From Octopus sinensis (taxonomy: Eukaryota): DNA of 64,000 nt. How positions within the stretch are numbered: position 1 is the stretch's first letter; every line of letters starts with the position of its first letter. The position numbers and the translations under genes are program-made. Where the stretch lies: positions 53,940,001 to 54,004,000 of the forward strand of contig NC_043003.1 of the NCBI RefSeq assembly GCF_006345805.1, given 5' to 3'. The notes below the pieces were generated by a model. It was not told where the DNA came from. It saw only the letters and a program-made list of their open reading frames with translations, and did no database searches. This document shows, piece by piece, positions 28,467 through 60,845 of the stretch.

Positions 28467-28840
28467 GGCACGATGGGTGAATTGTCGCCATTTTATATTT
28501 CTACTTTCACGCATGCGAATGATCTGTTTTTGATTTTGTCGACTACACAGTATAGTAGGGTCAGTTGGGCACCGTCTGTGAGAAAAACAGCACTATGACG
28601 CATTCACTCAGCCAGAAATTTGGAAACAACATGCTGTAATACTTGGCATTCGCACCGGAAGATTCAATACGAATATTTAAGAGTAACAGGGTTTCAATCT
28701 GAAGACAGTGCATGTAATGAGAGTGATAAAAATCAAACATCGAGTCAACATCATGGTGTTCGGAGTGATCACTAGTGATGGCAACGTAATGCCTCCATTC
28801 ATCTTTCCACACGGCATCAAACTCAACACGGAAGCCTTCA
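28464..28840 (+). mobile_element. Tc1/mariner-superfamily transposon fragment (left end plus partial transposase)
   Basis: TA|CAGGG end after (TA)n. KHRVNIMVFGVITSDGNVMPPFIFPHGIKLNTEAF resembles the Tc1/maT DDE/D domain segment. Confidence 0.75.
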
Positions 28841-28844
28841 TCAA

Positions 28845-29416
28845 CCGAGAAGGGAACTTCATGGAAAAAAGGTTCTTCTGTCTATCTGGTGGGATTGCAA
28901 AGGAGTAATTCACTTTGAATTGTTATCACCTAATGCAACAATTAATGCTCAAGTCTACTGTCAGCAATTAGAGCATTTGGACCAAGCTTTGGAGGAAAAA
29001 AGACCCACTTTAGTGAATCGAAAAGGAGTGATGTTTGATCGGGACAATGCGCGACCCCACACTGCAAAGATCACATCATAGAAGATCGAAGTGCTTGATT
29101 GGGAAAAAAATTCCTCATCCACCTTATTCTCCTGACCTTGTTCCTTCAGACTACCATATGTTTCGTAGTTTACAGAATCATTTGGAGGACATAACTTTCG
29201 CAAGCCAGGAGGAGGTCGAAACTGACATTCACAGTTCTTCGCTTTGAAACCGAAAGAGTTTTACATTGACGGGATTAAAAAGCTTGTAAATAGATGGAAG
29301 GAAGTCATAGATAATCAGAGAAAGTACATTGATGATTGAATTTTAATTAAATATAACATTTGATCACTTGTTTTCTTTATTCAAAATTCGGACAGAACTT
29401 ATGAGATGATCTAATA
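28845..29416 (+). mobile_element. Mariner (DD34D) transposase 3' half and right TIR, frameshifted
   Basis: KKVLLSIWWDCKGVIHFELL..DNARPHTA..PHPPYSPDLVPSDYHMFRSLQNHL..GIKKLVNRWKEVIDNQRKYIDD*. Ends GAACTTATGAGATGATCTAA|TA. Confidence 0.92.
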
Positions 29417-31905: not shown

Positions 31906-31972
31906 CCCGGACCATGGTTTCTGACTTATTCCATTAAAATAAAAATTTACTGAGGATGTCTTCCTCAGCGGG
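31906..31972 (-). ncRNA. Type-I hammerhead ribozyme
   Basis: Minus strand: CCCG-CUGAGGA-A-GAC(..~38 nt..)GUC-A-GAAAC-CAUG-GUC^CGGG. Stem I CCCG/CGGG, intact core, palindromic stem III ACCAUGGU. Confidence 0.8.
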
Positions 31973-32685: not shown

Positions 32686-32833
32686 GCTGGCTTTGTGGTA
32701 AGAAGCTTGCTTACCAGTCACATGCTTCTAGGTTCAGTCCCACTGCGTGGCACTCTGGGCAAGTGTATTTTACTACAGCCTCGGGTCGACTAATGCTTTG
32801 TGAGTGTATTTGGTAGACGGAAACTGAAAGAAT
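32686..32833 (+). mobile_element. SINE family B head, truncated at a PLE fragment
   Basis: TGGCTTTGTGGTAAGAAGCTTGCTTACC..GGTTCAGTCCCACTGCGTGGCAC..GGTAGACGGAAACTGAAAGAA. Confidence 0.8.
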
Positions 32834-32834
32834 C

Positions 32835-33800
32835 CCTAGAGGCGAACTGGCGTACCGCTTTAGAATGGCACTAGACAAGCTTAAGCTAAGAATTAAGGTT
32901 GTAGAAAGGCTAGGTAACCCTTTCAAATCAATAATCGGTAGGACCTACCCTTTTAATAGAACCCCCTGTACTGATAGGAACTGTATTGTATGTAGAGTTA
33001 GCCCACAGACAAGTTGTAAAACTAGGAATGTAGTCAATAGAATAAGATGTACAGAGGGACGGTGCAGAAACAAGACAGTGACGTGCGTAGGGGAGATAGC
33101 ACGTAGCATAGGAGTGCGGTTTAATAGCATTTGAGGGAACTCAAGGAAGAGAAGAGCTCATCAGTTTTATATCAGCATGCCAGGCAGGAACACGGGGGCT
33201 CACTCAACAACATAGAAATAAAAATTTTGTCAACACATAGAAGGGACGCAACGCTTAGACAAATTACGGAAGCTACACACAAAATAGAAAATAAACCTAG
33301 TCTAAATAGAAAGCTAGAATGGAGCACTAGCACCCATTCACCACAACCCGATGACAATAAGATCTCCATAAATTAATAATAATATGAAACTAATACAATA
33401 GATAGATAGGTCAATGGAATTAAGTAATAAAATACATAGAATATAATAAATTAATACAAATAAAGAAAATAAGTAAAAATAAATAAATACAATAAAATGA
33501 ACGTGAATAAATCTGATAATGCTGGTACGAAACAGTTACCAAACATAGACACACACAGGGATTTACACATGCGCAAACAAAGGCACATGCAACAGGAACA
33601 CAAAGTGGCAGACCGTTCGGAAGGAGAGACACAAAAAAGAAAGAAGAAAGCAAGAAACCACTGATGAGGTCATAGAAGTGTGACGAAAGAACTCTGGCCG
33701 AAATATAATTAATATGAAATAAAGCTGAAGCAAGTGAACACCGAATATAGAGTGTGTGTGTTTTCATTAGCTAAATTGGCAGCATGACCATCTCTATATA
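32835..33800 (+). mobile_element. Penelope-like retroelement 3' fragment: linker, GIY-YIG endonuclease and pLTR
   Basis: CTDRNCIVC..CKTRNVVNRIRCTEGRC..CVGEIARSIGVRF / SVLYQHARQEH..LRQITEA..KPSLNRKLEW is a degraded GIY-YIG with CCHH. One frameshift at ~33127. An HHR motif lies downstream. Confidence 0.88.
33658..33697 (+). ncRNA. Minimal hammerhead motif in the PLE pLTR (imperfect)
   Basis: CCA-CUGAUGA-G-GUCA UAGAAGUG UGAC-GAAA-GAAC-UC^UGG. Confidence 0.6.
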
Positions 33801-35284: not shown

Positions 35285-35803
35285 AATGTGAAATAGAAAG
35301 ATGAGTAATCTTGTAGCAGATTAATCAAAAGTTTAACCGATACCTTGGTAGCAAAAATCACAGCAGAAGACAGCACGGTTGGAGGTACAACCATATGGTG
35401 TTGCAACCGTGCGTTGGTGCGGATAATTGAAATTAAAATATTATTGGTGAATTGAAGAAATGGAGCTGAACGAAGATTGAACAGAAATCGTTTTATTTCA
35501 TTCTACACGTGTTTCGAAAGGCACAATTTACCAAAATCCGATTGAATAATGAGACCATATTGTGTCTTTCTCTTGCCATGGGCTCTTAGGAGCTTAGTTC
35601 GATTTGTTTTGCTCCGCCTCTGTTCTGTTTTTGTTTTTTCCAACGGATTTCCTATTTCTTCCTGAAGAGAAAGACACAATATGGTCTCATTATTCAATCG
35701 GATTTTGGTAAATTGTGCCTTTCGAAACACGTGTAGAATGAAATAAAACGATTTCTGTTCAATCTTCGTTCAGCTCCATTTCTTCAATTCACCAATAATA
35801 TTT
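35285..35803. mobile_element. Fold-back non-coding element in (TA)n with 139-bp inverted arms, carrying an HHR
   Basis: 35436-35574 is the reverse complement of 35665-35803, with a 90-bp spacer. Confidence 0.85.
35654..35744 (+). ncRNA. Type-I hammerhead ribozyme with long stem II
   Basis: AUUUCUUC-CUGAAGA-GAAAGACACAAU(..31 nt..)AUUGUGCCUUUC-GAAAC-ACGU-GUA^GAAUGAAAU. Intact core and palindrome ACACGUGU. Confidence 0.85.
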
Positions 35804-36004
35804 ATATATATATATATATATACTAAGCAATAAGGGTTTAGCAACGAGTTGCCTTACCACATACCGAATTTAGAAATAGCAGTCAAAGGGTTATAGCTAT
35901 TTCTTCTACTAAAAAGGGAGATCTCAGTAAAAACAGCATTTGGAAGGCACAAACAGGTAAGAGAGAATGAATTGACTGCAATCTATCATACATTTTTTTA
36001 GTTA

Positions 36005-36117
36005 TCCACGGACGTACGTTTCGAAATCAAGTTTTAAGGAAAACATACGAATTAAATATTAATATTAAATAATAAATAATTCTATCTTACCGAAACTTCT
36101 TTTCTCTTCAGCGTAGA
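36005..36117 (-). ncRNA. Hammerhead ribozyme, array unit 1
   Basis: Minus strand: UCUACG-CUGAAGA-GAAA AG AAGUUU...AAACUU GA UUUC-GAAAC-GUAC-GUC^CGUGGA. 6-bp stem I and ~80-nt stem II hairpin. Confidence 0.88.
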
Positions 36118-36606
36118 ATACTATAATCATAAATGATTATATATTGAATTTTGAGATACCAGAAGGCAACAACTCCACTCAGTATCAGAGCGAGCTAGAA
36201 CCCGCAACTGGTATCACCGAATTCAATTTGTGAATGAAACGATTGTGTCAACAGCCCCTTCCCACCCGCGTGTAGCCAAAACAAGATGCTGTGGTCATCT
36301 ACTGAGATAAAATATGGTTATCCGTAATAATGAAGGGTGAAATTAATTAATTTGGAAAAATTATCAATTACACCAAGTAGTCTTCGGCATGTAAAAGCCT
36401 CATTCGAGGAAAATTTAAGTAATACTAAGCAATAAGGGTTTAGCAACGAGTTGCCTTACCACATACCGAATTTAGAAATAGCAGTCAAAGGGTTATAGCT
36501 ATTTCTTCTACTAAAAAGGGAGATCTCAGTAAAAACAGCATTTGGAAGGCACAAACAGGTAAGAGAGAATGAATTGACTGCAATCTATCATACATTTTTT
36601 TAGTTA

Positions 36607-36718
36607 TCCACGGACGTACGTTTCGAAATCAAGTTTTAAGGAAAGCATACGAATTAAATATTAAATTTAATAATAAATAATTCTATCTTACCGAAACTTC
36701 TTTTCTCTTCAGCGTAGA
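36607..36718 (-). ncRNA. Hammerhead ribozyme, array unit 2
   Basis: Same motif as unit 1. Confidence 0.88.
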
Positions 36719-37206
36719 ATACTATAATCATAAATGATTATATATTGAATTTTGAGATACCAGAAGGCACCAACTCCACTCAGTATCAGAGCGAGCTAGA
36801 ACCCGCAACTGGTATCACCGAATTCAATTTGTGAATGAAACGATTGTGTCAACAGCCCCTTCCCACCCGCGTGTAGCAAAACAAGATGCTGTGGTCATCT
36901 ACTGAGATAAAATATGGTTATCCGTAATAATGAAGGGTGAAATTAATTAATTTGGAAAAATTATCAATTACACCAAGTAGTCTTCGGCATGTAAAAGCCT
37001 CATTCGAGGAAAATTTAAGTAATACTAAGCAATAAGGGTTTAGCAACGAGTTGCCTTACCACATACCGAATTTAGAAATAGCAGTCAAAGGGTTATAGCT
37101 ATTTCTTCTACTAAAAAGGGAGATCTCAGTAAAAACAGCATTTGGAAGGCACAAACAGGTAAGAGAGAATGAATTGACTGCAATCTATCATACATTTTTT
37201 TAGTTA

Positions 37207-37320
37207 TCCACGGACGTACGTTTCGAAATCAAGTTTTAAGGAAAGCATACGAATTAAATATTAAATATTAAATAATAAATAATTCTATCTTACCGAAACT
37301 TCTTTTCTCTTCAGCGTAGA
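37207..37320 (-). ncRNA. Hammerhead ribozyme, array unit 3
   Basis: Same motif as unit 1. Confidence 0.88.
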
Positions 37321-37845
37321 ATACTATAATCATAAATGATATATATTGAATTTTGAGATACCAGAAGGCACCAACTCCACTCAGTATCAGAGCGAGCTAG
37401 AACCCGCAACTGGTATCACCGAATTCAATTTGTGAATGAAACGATTGTGTCAACAGCCCCTTCCCACCCGCGGTGTAGCCAAAACAAGATGCTGTGGTCA
37501 TCTACTGAGATAAAATATGGTTATCCGTAATAATGAAGGGTGAAATTAATTAATTTGGAAAAATTATCAATTACACCAAGTAGTCTTCGGCATGTAAAAG
37601 CCTCATTCGAGGAAAATTTAAGTAATACTAAGCAATAAGGGTTTAGCAACGAGTTGCCTTACCACATACCGAATTTAGAAATAGCAGTCAAAGGGTTATA
37701 GCTATTTCTTCTACTAAAAAGGGAGTTCTCAGTAAAAACAGCATTTGGAAGGCACAAACAGGTAAGAGAGAATGAATTGACTGCAATATATATATATATA
37801 TATAATATATATATATTATATATATATATATATTATATATATATA

Positions 37846-42072: not shown

Positions 42073-42263
42073 ATACACAGATAGTAACATAAATACACAC
42101 ACATGCACATATATATACATACAACCTACGAATACTTACATATACGAACGTTTACATACACGTATGCACACGACCAGTTTATATTTATGCACATAAATAT
42201 ATATATGTATATATATATAAATATATAATATATATATATATATAATACATACATACATACTAC

Positions 42264-42337
<74 letters not shown>

Positions 42338-42517
42338 AAAGGGCTTAGTAAAATAAATTACTTTGCCGCATACTGAACTCATTAGAAATAGTAGCTAAAA
42401 AACTTTTTTAAAACTATTTCTAATACTTAAAGAAAACTCTCTCTCATATAGTGTTTGCTCAATTCAACTCACGAAAGTATGGGGGTAAAGACATTAAAAA
42501 ATCAAATGCAAAGGTTA

Positions 42518-42573
42518 TTTGAGAACGTACGTTTCAAGATTAGTCAACTCGACATTTCTATCATCAGCTCAGA
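42518..42573 (-). ncRNA. Hammerhead ribozyme in the 559-bp unit
   Basis: Minus strand: UGAG-CUGAUGA-U-AGAAAUGUC GAGUU GACUAAUCU-U-GAAAC-GUAC-GUU^CUCA. Confidence 0.8.
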
Positions 42574-43141
42574 ACTCCTTGGTTTGGATTTGAAAACACT
42601 GAAAGTGGGAGCATACCCTTTCGACTTCTTATCGCTTCTGAAGATCTGCTCGAAACTAACAGTGCCAGCAAACTCAAATATGCAAGCGAAGAATTTCTTC
42701 TGCTCCCCCTTTCCACCAGCGTGGGTTAAAATCAGTAAACACTATGCTTTTTCGGTAAAATCCGAGGCATTAAATAGAGAGAGATGATTATAATTTCAAC
42801 AATTGAGGGTAAAAGTAATTAATTATTAATCAATTTCACCAAGTATTCAGTATGCAAAGGACCATTTAAGGCGAATTCAAATTAATACATTATATAAAAG
42901 GGCTTAGTAAAATAATTACTTTGCCGCATACTGAACTCATTAGAAATAGTAGCTAAAAAAAACTTTTTTAAAACTATTTCTAATACTTAAAGACCACGCT
43001 GGTGGAAAGGGGAGAGCAGAAATTCTTCGCTTGCATATTTGAGTTTGCTGGCACTGTTAGTTTCGAGCAGATCTTCAGAAGCGATAAGAAGCCGAAAGGG
43101 TATGCTCCCACCTTCAGTGTTTTCAAATCCAACCAAGGAGT

Positions 43142-43196
43142 TCTGAGCTGATGATAGAAATGTCGAGTGACTAATCTTGAAACGTACGTTCTCAAA
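43142..43196 (+). ncRNA. Hammerhead ribozyme in the inverted copy
   Basis: TGAG CTGATGA TAGAAATGTCGAGTGACTAATCTT GAAAC GTAC GTT CTCA. Confidence 0.8.
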
Positions 43197-43577
43197 TAAC
43201 CTTTGCATTTGATTTTTTAATGTCTTTACCCCCATACTTTCGTGAGTTGAATTGAGCAAACACTATATGAGAGAGGTTTTCTTTAAGTATTAGAAATAGT
43301 TTTAAAAAAGTTTTTTTAGCTACTATTTCTAATGAGTTCAGTATGCGGCAAAGTAATTTATTTTACTAAGCCCTTTTATATAATGTAATAATTTGAATTC
43401 GCCTTAAATGGTCCCTTTGCATACTGAATACTTGGTGAAATTGATTAATAATTAATTAATTTTACCCTCAATTGTTGAAATTATATATATATATATATAT
43501 ACATACACACATGCAGGCAAATACGTTTGTTATAGTATAATTACGTATGTGTGCAAATTATGAGAGAAGTTCTTGGA

Positions 43578-44725: not shown

Positions 44726-44799
44726 AAATATATATATAATTGACAGAATGAGATGACAAAGCCAAGACTGGGAGGAGTTTTCAGGACATTAAGGAAATA

Positions 44800-44847
44800 G
44801 TCTTACAGCTGTTTCTGGAATATTATGGATATCCCTTCATCAGAGAC
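44800..44847 (-). ncRNA. Hammerhead ribozyme in a short non-coding element (44735-45090)
   Basis: Minus strand: GUCU-CUGAUGA-A-GGGAUA UCCAUAA UAUUCC-A-GAAAC-AGCU-GUA^AGAC. Confidence 0.82.
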
Positions 44848-45222
44848 GGTGTGAGAAGATTAAATAGAGGAAGTATTTGAGTTCGAATTATTATGGAAAA
44901 GGATGAGGTAGGGAATATAGAGGGAAATAAGAGAATGAAAGTAGAAATAAGATATATAACGATATTGTAGTTGCAGTTTCATTAACCGAGGACAATGGTG
45001 GATACAAGTGGTAAAAGGTTTCCTGTAAATGGTATGTAAGTTCCAATAGCAGCTGATGTTTAGTCTTTTCATAGTATTAAATATCATTATGATATATATT
45101 ATATAGAGTTATAGTACAGTTTTTATACTATGAGTCTTCCATAGTAGCTTTCTCTAAATAACTCGCAAAGCCTTTCGGGTTTGGTTATAAAAATATTATT
45201 TAAGTAGTTTTATATATATATA

Positions 45223-50395: not shown

Positions 50396-51390
50396 ATATA
50401 AACGGATGTGAAATGTTAAATCGGTAGATTGTAGTCTATTACTAGCAGTATCGCCCGGCGTTGCTCGGGTTTGTAAGGGAAATAACTATAAAGCATTTTT
50501 AGAGAGTTATAGCCAAAAAATAGCAAAAAAATGGAAAAAATATTATGGTAAATTTTTTTTTGAGAGTTAAAACGGTCGAGTTGCGTCCCCTAGACAGTCT
50601 GTGGTTTGTGTTTCTGATTCTCGACCCCATGTCGAATTTATCAATTTTTTTTAGAACTGGGGGAACTTTTCAAAATTTTCTCTGCGTTAGTTTTGAATTA
50701 TGACATTGGGCTATGTGTGTGTCAAGTTTCATCAGAATCGGTTGAAAGCCGTGGTCAGGGTGAGGGTACAACCTAACAGACACACAGAAACACACACAGA
50801 CAAACTGCCGTTTATATAGAGAGAGATGTCTTGGGGTAACTGGTCACTAATAAACTACACCGAGGAAATCTGAGATCGGTAACTGGTTGGAATTGCGACC
50901 GTATTGCCAAGAATAGACTTAAGACTTAATACTGACTGCATTGCTCACATTATATTTCAAACCAATTTTCGTTTACTAAAACTGTGGGTACATAAAGCAA
51001 TTACTGACCACTTATGTTTTCTGTGCTTGTGAGTAAGTCAACAATATTTGCTCGAGTGTAATGACCCGCTGTACTTTACATTTAAATATAAACGGATGTG
51101 AAATGTTAAATCGGTAGATTGTAGTCTATTATGTCTTGGGGTAACTGGTCACTAATAAACTACACCGAGGAAATCTGAGATCGGTAACTGGTTGGAATTG
51201 CGACCGTATTGCCAAGAATAGACTTAAGACTTAATACTGACTGCATTGCTCACATTATATTTCAAACCAATTTTCGTTTACTAAAACTGTGGGTACATAA
51301 AGCAATTACTGACCACTTATGTTTTCTGTGCTTGTGAGTATGTCAACAATATTTGCTCGAGTGTAATGACCCGCTGTACTTTACATTTAA
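50396..51390 (+). repeat. 305-bp tandem duplication (copy 1 at 50396-51085 interrupted by a Helitron; copy 2 at 51086-51390)
   Basis: The copies are nearly identical apart from the 385-bp insert. Confidence 0.95.
50442..50826 (-). mobile_element. Non-autonomous Helitron, 385 bp
   Basis: The minus strand starts TC and ends CTAG, preceded by hairpin CCCG AGCAACGC CGGG. It is inserted between A and T with no TSD; the empty site TCTATTA|TGTCTTGG is at 51125-51139. Confidence 0.93.
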
Positions 51391-53040: not shown

Positions 53041-53289
53041 CATCGCAAGAGAAGTAGATACATAGATACATATATACATTGTTTAATCAAAAGCAGGAGA
53101 GAATAGGGACACAAAGGAAATGAAAGAGAAAGAGAGAAAATGAGAGAGATAATACATATATAGATACATAGACACAGCAAATATTGGGTGTTAGTTTCAC
53201 TTTTCATTACCACACGAGAATGAAATTAAACTAAATATCTAACTAAATGTCTATGTATCAATATATGTATTATATATATATATATAAAA

Positions 53290-53925
53290 GACCGGTTTAA
53301 CTTTTCTAGGCGTCCCCCAGCCGAACTCTCGGCCCTTCGATGTCTCCGACACCTTACTGACATCATCATAAAACTGACCGACAAGGGTGTAGCCGTGGTG
53401 GTGTGGCGCGCAGACCTCTGCAAGGCCGAAGCTCTCCGCCAGCTTCAAGACACTCCTTCTACTGCCCTATGCCCTCTGACTCCACACCCAGCTACCAACA
53501 GACTGTGTCCTCCACTATTCATGACCTCATTTCCTCCTCCAGTCTCCCCACCGCCTCCAACCTCGTTGTTCACACCCCTCGCACCTCCACGATTTGTTTC
53601 CTCATCAAAATCCACAAACCTAACAACCCTGGCCGCCCCATCGTCTACGCCTGCAACTGCCAAAAAAAAAAAATGGGTATGACCCTTCTGTCCGGCATTC
53701 GTCATGATAGATCGCTAGCCACTACACATTCTTTATTTTCTCTCCTTGTTTCTTTATTTTCTCTCTTTATGTTCTCTTCTTGTTTCTTTCTGTGTTCCTT
53801 TCTGTGGAAAAGCTTAGGTTCGAAACGTTAAAGACTTTTTCTCTTCTCGAGCATTATGCTAATACATCTGTTTGTTGTCTACACTACCTGTCTTCGTCTT
53901 TAGTTTTTTTTGTGAATTCTCCCTA
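53290..53925 (+). mobile_element. Penelope-like element fragment (RT N-terminal part joined to pLTR)
   Basis: DIIIKLTDKGVAVVVWRADL..EALRQL..PRTSTICFLIKIHKPNNPGRPIV corresponds to the PLE RT motifs (ADKG..V; LPKIHK...PGRPIVS). Flanked by TA tracts. Confidence 0.88.
53798..53833 (+). ncRNA. Minimal hammerhead-like motif, variant core
   Basis: CUUU-CUGUGGA-AAAGC UUAG GUUC-GAAAC-GUU^AAAG. The core deviates from CUGANGA. Confidence 0.45.
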
Positions 53926-56077: not shown

Positions 56078-58145
56078 GCATAGAAAGAACCTCATTTTCA
56101 ATGTGGCTGGACTACAAGGAGGCCTTTGTCTCTGTCCCCCACTCTTGGATGCTAAAAGACTTTTGACTTGCTAAGTTCCAGTGAGCATAATCAATGCTAT
56201 AGCTGACCTGATATCATCGTTGGCCACCATCTTGAAGTTAAATACAACGAGTGATTGTATTATCACTAATAGAATACAGTATCGCAGAGGTATATTTCAA
56301 GGGGATAGCCCCTCTATGATGTTTATACTCTCTGTAAACCCTTTGTCATTCATTTTAAGGAAGTGTGAATGATATCTCACTAGTTTACAAGGAAACAGAA
56401 ATACCAAAATTACACAGTGCTCCTTTGTGAATACTTGAAACTATATTAAAAGAATATGCATGGGATATAAAAGAGCCTTGACTTGGTTAAAACATTCTCA
56501 AAGGATATATATTTGGAGTTTGGTCAAGGTAAATGTTGCTATATGATCGCGAAAAGAGGGAAAGCGGTAAAAAAACAAAACAAACAACATCTCCATCAAT
56601 GACCTGACTGTTTCTCCTATATCTGTTACATATATATTGGGGCGGATGGAAACATATCATACGATGGTACCTGTAACGAGACACGTGTCACTAAAGAATA
56701 TTACAACCGAATAAAGAAAATATGGATCTCGAAACTCTCTGCATTCAATAAAACTGTGGCCCATAATGTGCTCGCAGTGCCAGTATTAATTTGGCTACTT
56801 GGTTGAACGTTTGATGAGATCTGAGCCATTGATGTGACAACTCGGAAGATACTAACCAACACGCATAATTTCCACATCAACAATGACGTAGACCGCCTCT
56901 ACTTTAAACGAGAACAAAAGAGCAAAGGCTTAAAATCAGTCCAAACTGCCTTTGGATGTCCTATCATAGCCCTTCGAGAGCATCTTCAACCACCAAGTGT
57001 CTAAGTGCATTCTTTGACCAAGTTTGCATACAAGAGGCTGATAATATCACGAGACTTGTCTGTTAACCTTAGACATATGCCCAAAGAAGTCGCACGACTC
57101 TACCGCAACGTATCATCAGATAAAAGGATGAGCGTATATGAGCAGAAGATCATGCATGCATATATCAGTAGAAACCTCCGAGGTGATAGCAACATTGATC
57201 ATCAAAACAGTCTATCATCGACCAACAACTGGATTACTAACTCCCACTTTGAAGGTTATGCGTTTGCAATTCAGGAACAAGAAATATTAACCAAATACAT
57301 GATGCACAAAAGGGACAGAAACACAGGAAAAGTAGCAAAATGTGATAACCGATGCAGACTTTGTGGAGTTACCGCCGAAGATATCACCCACATCATAAGC
57401 AGTTGTCCGAAAAAGTCATCACGGTATTATCTATCGATGAGAGATGATGTTGTAGCTAGGACACTCTATAATGAAATCAGTCGAAAGATAACACCGAGAC
57501 CAAAGAATATGCAATAGGATAGAATATGCAATATGATAGAAGCCACAGCCATTCATAATAAAAAGGGGTACTGAATATCCCAGTGAAAACCTCAATAAAA
57601 TGTAAGCATAATATACAAGATATAGTAATTTGGGATAAAGAAGAGAAACTGTACAGTTGTGGAAATCAGCTATCCAGCGGATATTAACATAAAGCTAAAA
57701 ATCAGTGAAAAAGAATACGCTAAACTATTGAGGAATCTACAGCTACTCTATCCAGATTACAAGTTCAGGTTTATACTTGTAATTATCGGGGCATTGGAAT
57801 ATGTCACACACAACCTAAATACCAATCTTGAGAAATTAGGCTTCTCAAAACCAGAATGGAGAAAGCTGATTCCAAGACTACAAATCCAAGTCATCACAGG
57901 AACTGTAAAAATCTGTAAAACTTTCCAGAAATTTATCATTTAAGTATATATGGGCATGTGTAGATATGCAAGTATATGCATAAGAATACACACATAAAAT
58001 AAAAATACAAATCTTCACATAGACATATATATATAAAACTCCCCTGTCGATGTTGTCGAAATTCCAATGGAGGAATCTTGGATCTAGGTTAGAAACCGGC
58101 TCTTTCTCTACTGGCTAGAAATCTTGAAATAAAACTAAATAATAA
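56078..58145 (+). mobile_element. RLE-type non-LTR retrotransposon (R4/Dong-like), 5'-truncated and decayed
   Basis: WLDYKEAFVSVPHSW; RRGIFQGDS; FEGYAFAIQEQEILTK; CRLCG..EDITHIISSC; R.D.VA; DIVIWDK..VVEISYP (PD-(D/E)xK endonuclease). Confidence 0.9.
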
Positions 58146-60727: not shown

Positions 60728-60729
<2 letters not shown>

Positions 60730-60845
60730 AAATAAGGGTTTAGCAACAAGCTGCTTCACCACCTACCGAAAATTTAGAAATAGCAGCCAAAAGACAGCTA
60801 ATTCTTTTCACTACAATTTTAGGACTCCACAGACAATAATATTTG
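60728..60845 (-). mobile_element. Truncated end of a relative of the 600-bp HHR unit, in (TA)n
   Basis: AATAAGGGTTTAGCAACAAGCTGCTTCACCACCTACCGAAAATTTAGAAATAGCAGCCAAA aligns with 35829-35887. Confidence 0.8.

Follow-up and report, generated by a model that had tools for sequence, protein, structure and literature searches.

How does an RNA that encodes no protein come to lie in a (TA)n microsatellite as a direct repeat joined to an inverted copy of itself? The question is raised by positions 42193-43501 of a 64-kb stretch of Octopus sinensis DNA, the whole of which we analysed and refer to as the window. The window is eukaryotic in character, with about 35% GC, and is rich in microsatellites and dispersed repeats; its commonest short repeat resembles what we take to be an octopus SINE. 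Here, we argue that the insertion is probably a non-coding, non-autonomous Penelope-like element (PLE), an animal non-LTR retrozyme that was mobilised by a TA-targeting PLE via twin priming. Its parts, in window positions, are as follows.

42193-42330, no strand: left target tract, an imperfect (TA)n with no TT doublets and six AA doublets.
42331-42993, minus strand: direct copy of 663 nt, a 559-nt unit plus about 105 nt; the RNA 3' end (site A) is at 42331.
42520-42571, minus strand: type I hammerhead of the direct copy, core from 42567, cleavage after 42524.
42789-42990, minus strand: full copy of a structured domain at the unit junction.
42993/42994, no strand: head-to-head (5'-5') junction, non-palindromic and without clear microhomology.
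42994-43485, plus strand: inverted, 5'-truncated copy of 492 nt that crosses the unit junction; its 3' end (site B) is at 43485.
43144-43194, plus strand: hammerhead of the inverted copy, core at 43148, cleavage after 43190.
43384-43485, plus strand: one-sided extension (tail) of about 100 nt, from site A to site B.
43484-43501, no strand: right target tract, (TA)9.

A first-pass annotation had described a 559-nt direct repeat with an inverted copy that reads through the unit junction, and BLAST of the region against the window confirmed this geometry. Positions 42885-42993 repeat 42326-42433; the unit period is thus 559 nt, and the direct part, 42331-42993, amounts to 1.19 units. The inverted copy matches the reverse complement of 42724-42327 (at 42994-43387, 97.5% over 399 columns) and then that of 42993-42789 (at 43280-43485, 97.6%). 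Against a permuted direct copy it shows five substitutions and eight one-base indels over 496 columns, and the two are set apart by a polymorphic one-base indel at 42858 and by a patch at 42699-42705. They are joined 5' to 5', so that each 3' end points outward into (TA)n with TATA words at each abutment, as the annotation had also proposed. A target-site duplication cannot be read inside (TA)n.

The hammerhead, said earlier to be kept in both copies, was indeed recovered in each. A type I scan of the window found seven motifs, every one with a palindromic helix III, compared with 0.7 motifs of any kind and 0.07 with a palindromic helix III in controls of 30 random sequences with the same dinucleotide make-up. 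Since the two motifs of the insertion lie on opposite strands, the RNA sense is minus in the direct copy and plus in the inverted copy. Stem I of the ribozyme is 4 bp long, helix II has a U.U at its base and the triplet is GUU; the active fold is predicted at +2.9 kcal/mol for the monomer versus -7.6 kcal/mol for the best fold. The self-complementary 8-nt helix III word is predicted to form a duplex of -9.8 kcal/mol, and these energetics fit a molecule that would probably cleave as a dimer through its palindromic helix III, a mode described for metazoan type I hammerheads (PMC4209133). Both sides of the stem I pair 42520/42571 change at equal depth, 14, in contigs of sequencing run X7. When linear permutations were folded, the cleavage site did not stand out. 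Rfam gave no match at gathering scores anywhere in the window, so that the hammerhead went undetected; with the 559-nt element searched up to E 10, it returned seven matches (best E 0.36), none of them a ribozyme. A further hammerhead-like motif in the window, at 31906-31972 on the minus strand, has a palindromic helix III and a non-standard core letter.

The unusual core letters could be read as decay, a reading that we rejected: U.U and GUU are common among the motifs of Hydra-clade PLEs, 14 of 25 families having U.U at the helix II base and 10 of 25 having a U at the cleavage base (PMC8557442 supplement). The axolotl retrozyme hammerhead HHR_Amex2 also has the U.U.

Both copies continue past the cleavage site, which lies 193 nt from the 3' end of the direct copy and 295 nt from that of the inverted copy, and the inverted copy is not readable off the present direct copy in one pass. 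Their template was therefore multimeric or circular, which bears out the tandem or circular template suggested by the annotation; the DNA sequence fits a circle and an uncleaved multimer alike. A route with no second priming event can also be drawn, in which the first cDNA turned at 42724, copied back, switched via the 105-nt repeat and was resolved by an endonuclease at site B. The direct copy could have served as template for the first 394 nt of the inverted one, and the haplotype is common to both; moreover, self-priming has been proposed for the inverted ends and palindromic junctions of PLEs (PMC3846280), and endonuclease resolution for their tails (PMC8557442). However, the 42993/42994 junction is not palindromic and its 3' end is unpaired, an extra template switch would be required to reach 42889-42789, and site B lies on the most unpaired of three TATA stretches, as expected of a priming site. 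We regard such a fold-back as unlikely.

Is the arrangement a property of the element or of this locus? We compared 42434-43040 with contigs from four sequencing runs, which carry three organism labels (24 runs were listed). The numbers of matching contigs were 8094, 2588, 26 and 201, and all 29 bins of the query had contig depth in each run; the 559-nt family is very abundant. The head-to-tail joint 42993->42437/42439 occurs in all four runs, so the unit closes on itself. Opposite-strand joints were found elsewhere in the unit, at 42545/42641 in two runs (X1 and X4, from independent short-read contigs) and at 42580/42860 in one (X4), which makes inversions a property of the family. The same letter stands in both copies at 24 of the 26 variant rows tested (from 40 listed); at the other two, the direct copy alone departs from approximately 100% of the family. 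Eight further variant rows fall in the shared range, six of which agree while two lie within the patch 42699-42705. This agreement indicates that both halves came from one source haplotype. Mapping of contig ends, from incomplete records, showed no pile-ups of starts or ends, and (TA)n in none of the 24 loose-end rows listed of 205. Contigs of run X16 also cover 29 of 29 bins and the tandem joint; we did not use this run as evidence of RNA, its kind being guessed and its contigs carrying neither strand nor level.

The contigs bear on whether the locus could instead be a later DNA-level rearrangement of a longer direct array, by inversion and deletion, or a long-read or assembly artefact. Most differences between the two copies are one-base indels, of the kind seen in long-read consensus sequences, and the window's own 42993/42994 junction is absent among the contigs listed, which are a minority of all pieces. 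Nevertheless, opposite-strand joints do exist in short-read contigs, and a folded-back read would mirror the junction, whereas the observed junction is not mirrored. Besides a breakpoint on a TATA word beside (TA)n, a plain inversion would require an additional deletion of about 350 nt, and there is no residual array to the right. Furthermore, the same layout recurs in a second hammerhead element of the window, and we consider this explanation improbable.

That second element, at 35286-35803, is unrelated in sequence, so the head-to-head layout recurs within 64 kb. Both its 3' ends reach (TA)n, and its arms, 35436-35574 and 35665-35803, are 100% complementary. Its inverted arm is about 150 nt longer and contains a strong hairpin, its junction has a 6-bp palindrome, and it has one TA tract in common with a neighbouring 600-nt array that is described below.

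The RNA strand of the 559-nt unit has no protein-coding frame. The longest ATG frame on the RNA strand is 19 codons, and the reverse transcriptase and GIY-YIG endonuclease frame of an autonomous PLE is absent. An antisense 102-codon frame of the direct copy is not retained in the inverted copy; likewise, a stop-free frame of 111 codons (42452-42787, plus strand), also antisense to the RNA, is broken there, and we take it as chance.

Judged by the features examined, the element appears to belong to the animal non-LTR retrozymes (Cervera & de la Pena 2020, PMC7229834; review, PMC7761336; Li et al. 2026, 10.64898/2026.07.22.740005), with cleavage and circles as predictions. These retrozymes are non-coding, head-to-tail tandem units of up to about 1 kb with one type I hammerhead per unit, here a weak variant; the octopus element is like them in low GC and, by prediction, in a strongly self-paired monomer. 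The unit length falls within their reported range of 51-972 bp, but exceeds that of the invertebrate retrozyme RNAs studied (170-400 nt). Li et al. (2026) recognise an active element by two consecutive complete hammerheads, whereas here there is one per orientation. In the literature compared, as far as its available text goes, (TA)n insertion, an inverted 5' copy and a tail are unreported for retrozymes. A 2020 review sees no conserved motif in animal retrozyme repeats that points to a helper; in the 559-nt element, by contrast, a conserved domain with a predicted structure lies where copying appears to start.

A circular monomer is predicted to fold with a z-score of -4.2 (30 shuffles), and the related 600-nt unit with -7.1. 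Variation within the family lends this fold no support outside the domain: over the whole monomer, variants keep pairing at 8 and compensate at 3 of 21 sites, where 8.3 are expected (38 of 40 rows mapped).

The same stretch could in principle be the truncated pseudo-LTR ends of a long coding PLE rather than a self-contained unit. The commonest trace of a PLE is its 5'-truncated ends (PMC8557442, PMC4209133), a copy at 60728 is such a stump, and a few loose contig ends enter other sequence, for instance behind 42749 in X4 (among 24 of 205 rows). This possibility seems improbable given the head-to-tail closure in four of four runs with depth in 29 of 29 bins in each, the lack of a sense ORF, and a sister 600-nt family that forms 3.3 clean units. 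We thus retain the retrozyme reading.

Where on the unit does copying begin? The annotation had expected the ends to be freely permuted, and this was not supported. Two related insertions in the window can be compared with the 559-nt element.

35822-37786, minus strand: related 600-nt family, 3.3 units, with a canonical GUC hammerhead and the same domain; its 3' end is at site A in (TA)n.
60728-60835, minus strand: third related family, a 5'-truncated copy (P0, P1 5' strand and P2); its 3' end is at site A in (TA)n.

The 600-nt array has three hammerheads in a row, with a G-C pair instead of U.U, and GUC. Four 3' ends of this group face TA in the window, and three of them, each from a different and divergent family, are found 9-15 nt behind one hairpin, P2. 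These are the left end of the 559-nt insertion and the 3' ends of the 600-nt array and of the 60728-60835 stump. The fourth, site B, is about 100 nt beyond site A, in the manner of a PLE tail; site A is therefore used three times and site B once. The interval was picked after the ends were seen, on the evidence of one insertion and four ends, and contains 4 of 98 and 3 of 119 of the TA/AT words of the two monomers. The 600-nt family passes over better TATA matches elsewhere in its unit. In the predicted fold, site B lies on the most unpaired of the three TATA stretches of the 559-nt unit.

The place that the ends have in common falls in the block shared between families. The annotation had called the internal sequence unrelated to the 600-nt unit except for one block, which nearly holds; two short words outside the block, however, are also common to both units, a purine-rich motif of 18 nt (2 of 300 shuffles as good) and the helix III word of 11 nt (4 of 300). 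The segment after the cleavage site shows no similarity between the 559-nt and 600-nt units (254 of 300 shuffles as good). The purine-rich motif, at 42706-42724 and 36255-36273, pairs in both predicted folds with a pyrimidine run soon after the cleavage site. Over the shared block itself, two of the three families are 68% alike, and the block is best modelled as a covarying four-helix RNA domain, P0-P1-P2-P4, that encloses start site A. On the inverted copy, its predicted elements are as follows.

43288-43334, plus strand: helix P0, a hairpin; 9 pairs, one two-sided change, one broken cell.
43336-43429, plus strand: helix P1, long-range; 10 pairs, two two-sided changes; it closes P2 and the AU-rich loop.
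up to 43372, plus strand: hairpin P2; 8 pairs, two two-sided changes.
43373-43418, plus strand: AU-rich loop of 46 nt that contains start site A (about 43384).
43434-43466, plus strand: helix P4, a hairpin; 12 pairs, no two-sided changes, one broken cell.

In the alignment of the three families (two for P1 and P4), from which the structure was itself derived, 93 of 95 cells are paired with five two-sided changes, a result that 6 of 500 shuffles reached; P3 was left out of the pair count, being out of register between families. Slid controls were 33-50% paired and had no two-sided changes. The same shape, with an AU-rich loop of 44-46 nt, was obtained when each family was folded alone (z-scores of -3.0 and -3.3). 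Variation within the 559-nt family provides independent support. Both sides of the P1 top pair, 42855/42926, vary (45/35% in X1, 34/35% in X4, and equal depth of 8.32 in X7), and a change at 42845 converts G.U to G-C; across the domain, variants at paired sites keep pairing in five of seven cases and break it in two. A search of the window with a model of the domain, which had the third family in its training set, found no families beyond that set and two weak antisense self-matches. Of two pattern searches of metagenomes, one gave no matches and the second gave 40, one of which scored E 0.054 with the domain model over the P0-like hairpin only and was treated as chance. Site A would lie within the P1-closed loop and site B just behind P4. 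The domain appears to set where copying starts.

These observations can be assembled into a reaction path, the transcription, cleavage, helper and twin priming of which we infer. Tandem genomic copies would be transcribed into multimers, which could be cut by the hammerhead, probably as a dimer via the palindromic helix III, and the monomers possibly circularised. The reverse transcriptase/endonuclease of a TA-targeting PLE would bind the folded P0-P1-P2-P4 domain, and the same protein would cut both strands of a (TA)n tract. One DNA 3' end would prime at site A, in the P1-closed loop 9-15 nt behind P2, and the other at site B, immediately past P4; each would pair with the template over a few TA bases. 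Copying would then proceed past the ribozyme site, on a circle or an uncut multimer, to yield cDNAs of 663 and 492 nt, and joining of their growing ends would leave a head-to-head insert that has a 100-nt tail at one of its sides. The annotation had likewise proposed that both ends of a break primed reverse transcription. This part agrees with in vitro work on a PLE protein, which cut AT-rich DNA and extended both strands (PMC11167929). In the same work, uncut RNA served as a template, and the tail corresponded to the sequence between two internal sites at which reverse transcription began.

Neither the insertion arrangement nor the circular-template model is new; both are already published for PLEs, and the inverted arrangement on its own is ordinary. 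In endonuclease-bearing PLEs (Arkhipova 2013, PMC3846280; Craig 2021, PMC8557442; Frangieh 2024, PMC11167929), a partial tandem with an adjacent inverted 5'-truncated copy, a one-sided tail, internal start sites and a microsatellite bias are found as they appear to be here, and opposite-strand hammerheads 100-700 bp apart have been described together with a circular-template model (PMC4209133). Nevertheless, there are distinct differences: the 559-nt element has no reverse transcriptase/endonuclease frame, its junction is non-palindromic, and its tail is about 100 nt rather than 30-40 nt. Mobilisation of animal retrozymes by PLEs has been proposed from co-occurrence and from similarity of end sequences.

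The Hydra clade is a candidate helper, with Neptune and Naiad as alternatives. Hydra-clade PLEs have (TA)n targets, a full hammerhead and frequent U.U and U at the cleavage base, as here; a member from Octopus is listed, and Penelope-13_HM has an inverted 5'-truncated copy (Craig 2021). Their helix III word, in contrast, differs from that of the 559-nt element, and Hydra-1_Obim lacks the U.U and, by eye, the domain. Neither motif search nor inspection by eye found a match to the domain in six novel Hydra consensi of the PMC8557442 supplement, a set that excludes Repbase members, and the domain was absent by eye from an octopus Hydra consensus and from Naiad end segments in their published portions. 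The word 'ribozyme' occurs nowhere in an O. vulgaris repeat annotation. In a largely open-access literature, two retrozyme supplements aside, we found no cephalopod retrozyme, nor any retrozyme for which TA targeting, an inverted copy or a conserved domain at the start site is described.

The window contains other relics. Positions 28779-29260 are presumably a mariner-type transposase relic, 57005-57943 hold a LINE 3' relic that matches zf-RVT weakly, and 50826-51390 contains a 305-nt direct repeat of 99% identity. Broken frames with a DKG motif at 53230-53831, without a Pfam match, resemble what we assume to be the N-terminal part of a Poseidon-type PLE reverse transcriptase. For the PLE relics nearby, Pfam gave no family for three of four frames. 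At 32817-33350 is a broken end of a PLE GIY-YIG endonuclease, in which a CX4CxxC linker and CCHH-like residues are spread across two frames; it has no Pfam match, is Neptune-like by the motifs of Craig (2021) and is followed by a hammerhead core at 33661. On the minus strand, 44740-45215 holds about 470 nt between TA runs, with a type I hammerhead (core at 44843) about 60 nt from the 3' end, as in Hydra-type PLE ends; it also has a 13-nt word, possibly by chance, in common with the 3' part of published octopus Naiad consensi.

The reverse transcriptases of PLEs are sisters of TERT, and the predicted domain invites comparison with telomerase RNA. The ciliate telomerase RNA core (PMC5224487) has the same order of elements: a long-range stem that closes a hairpin, a single-stranded region where copying starts, a short third stem and a distal stem-loop. 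In the predicted fold of the 559-nt domain, too, a long-range stem surrounds the copy region, which is immediately preceded by a hairpin. In telomerase RNA, however, copying stops at the hairpin, whereas in the 559-nt element it runs on through it. The best pseudoknot in the enclosed loop has nine pairs, with 166 and 158 of 200 shuffles as good; TT doublets, expected from recopying of site A, number zero in the left tract; and Rfam gave no match of the element to telomerase RNA up to E 10. Without a pseudoknot above chance, a recopied template or an Rfam match, the likeness is an analogy only. A stronger version would make the domain a telomerase-RNA-like module that binds the PLE reverse transcriptase and places the (TA)n primer on the P1-closed template loop, retrozymes being minimal RNA partners of telomerase's closest relatives and A and B the start sites of a protein dimer at one break; we offer it as a speculation that is unlikely to hold.

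The novelty of the locus rests on the domain and the fixed start site, not on the inversion. A protein-free 559-nt unit here appears to carry the full insertion signature of a PLE together with a covarying domain, as modelled, at the site where copying would start, and this domain is common to three families; the shared block, set aside in the first-pass annotation, is the most informative part. A defined RNA of 200 nt and a (TA)n target provide a basis for testing RNA recognition by a PLE protein. The same pair of RNA and target would allow us to ask how tails and inverted halves form, and whether or not the likeness to telomerase RNA goes beyond topology. The conserved domain is a clue to how protein-free elements get mobilised.
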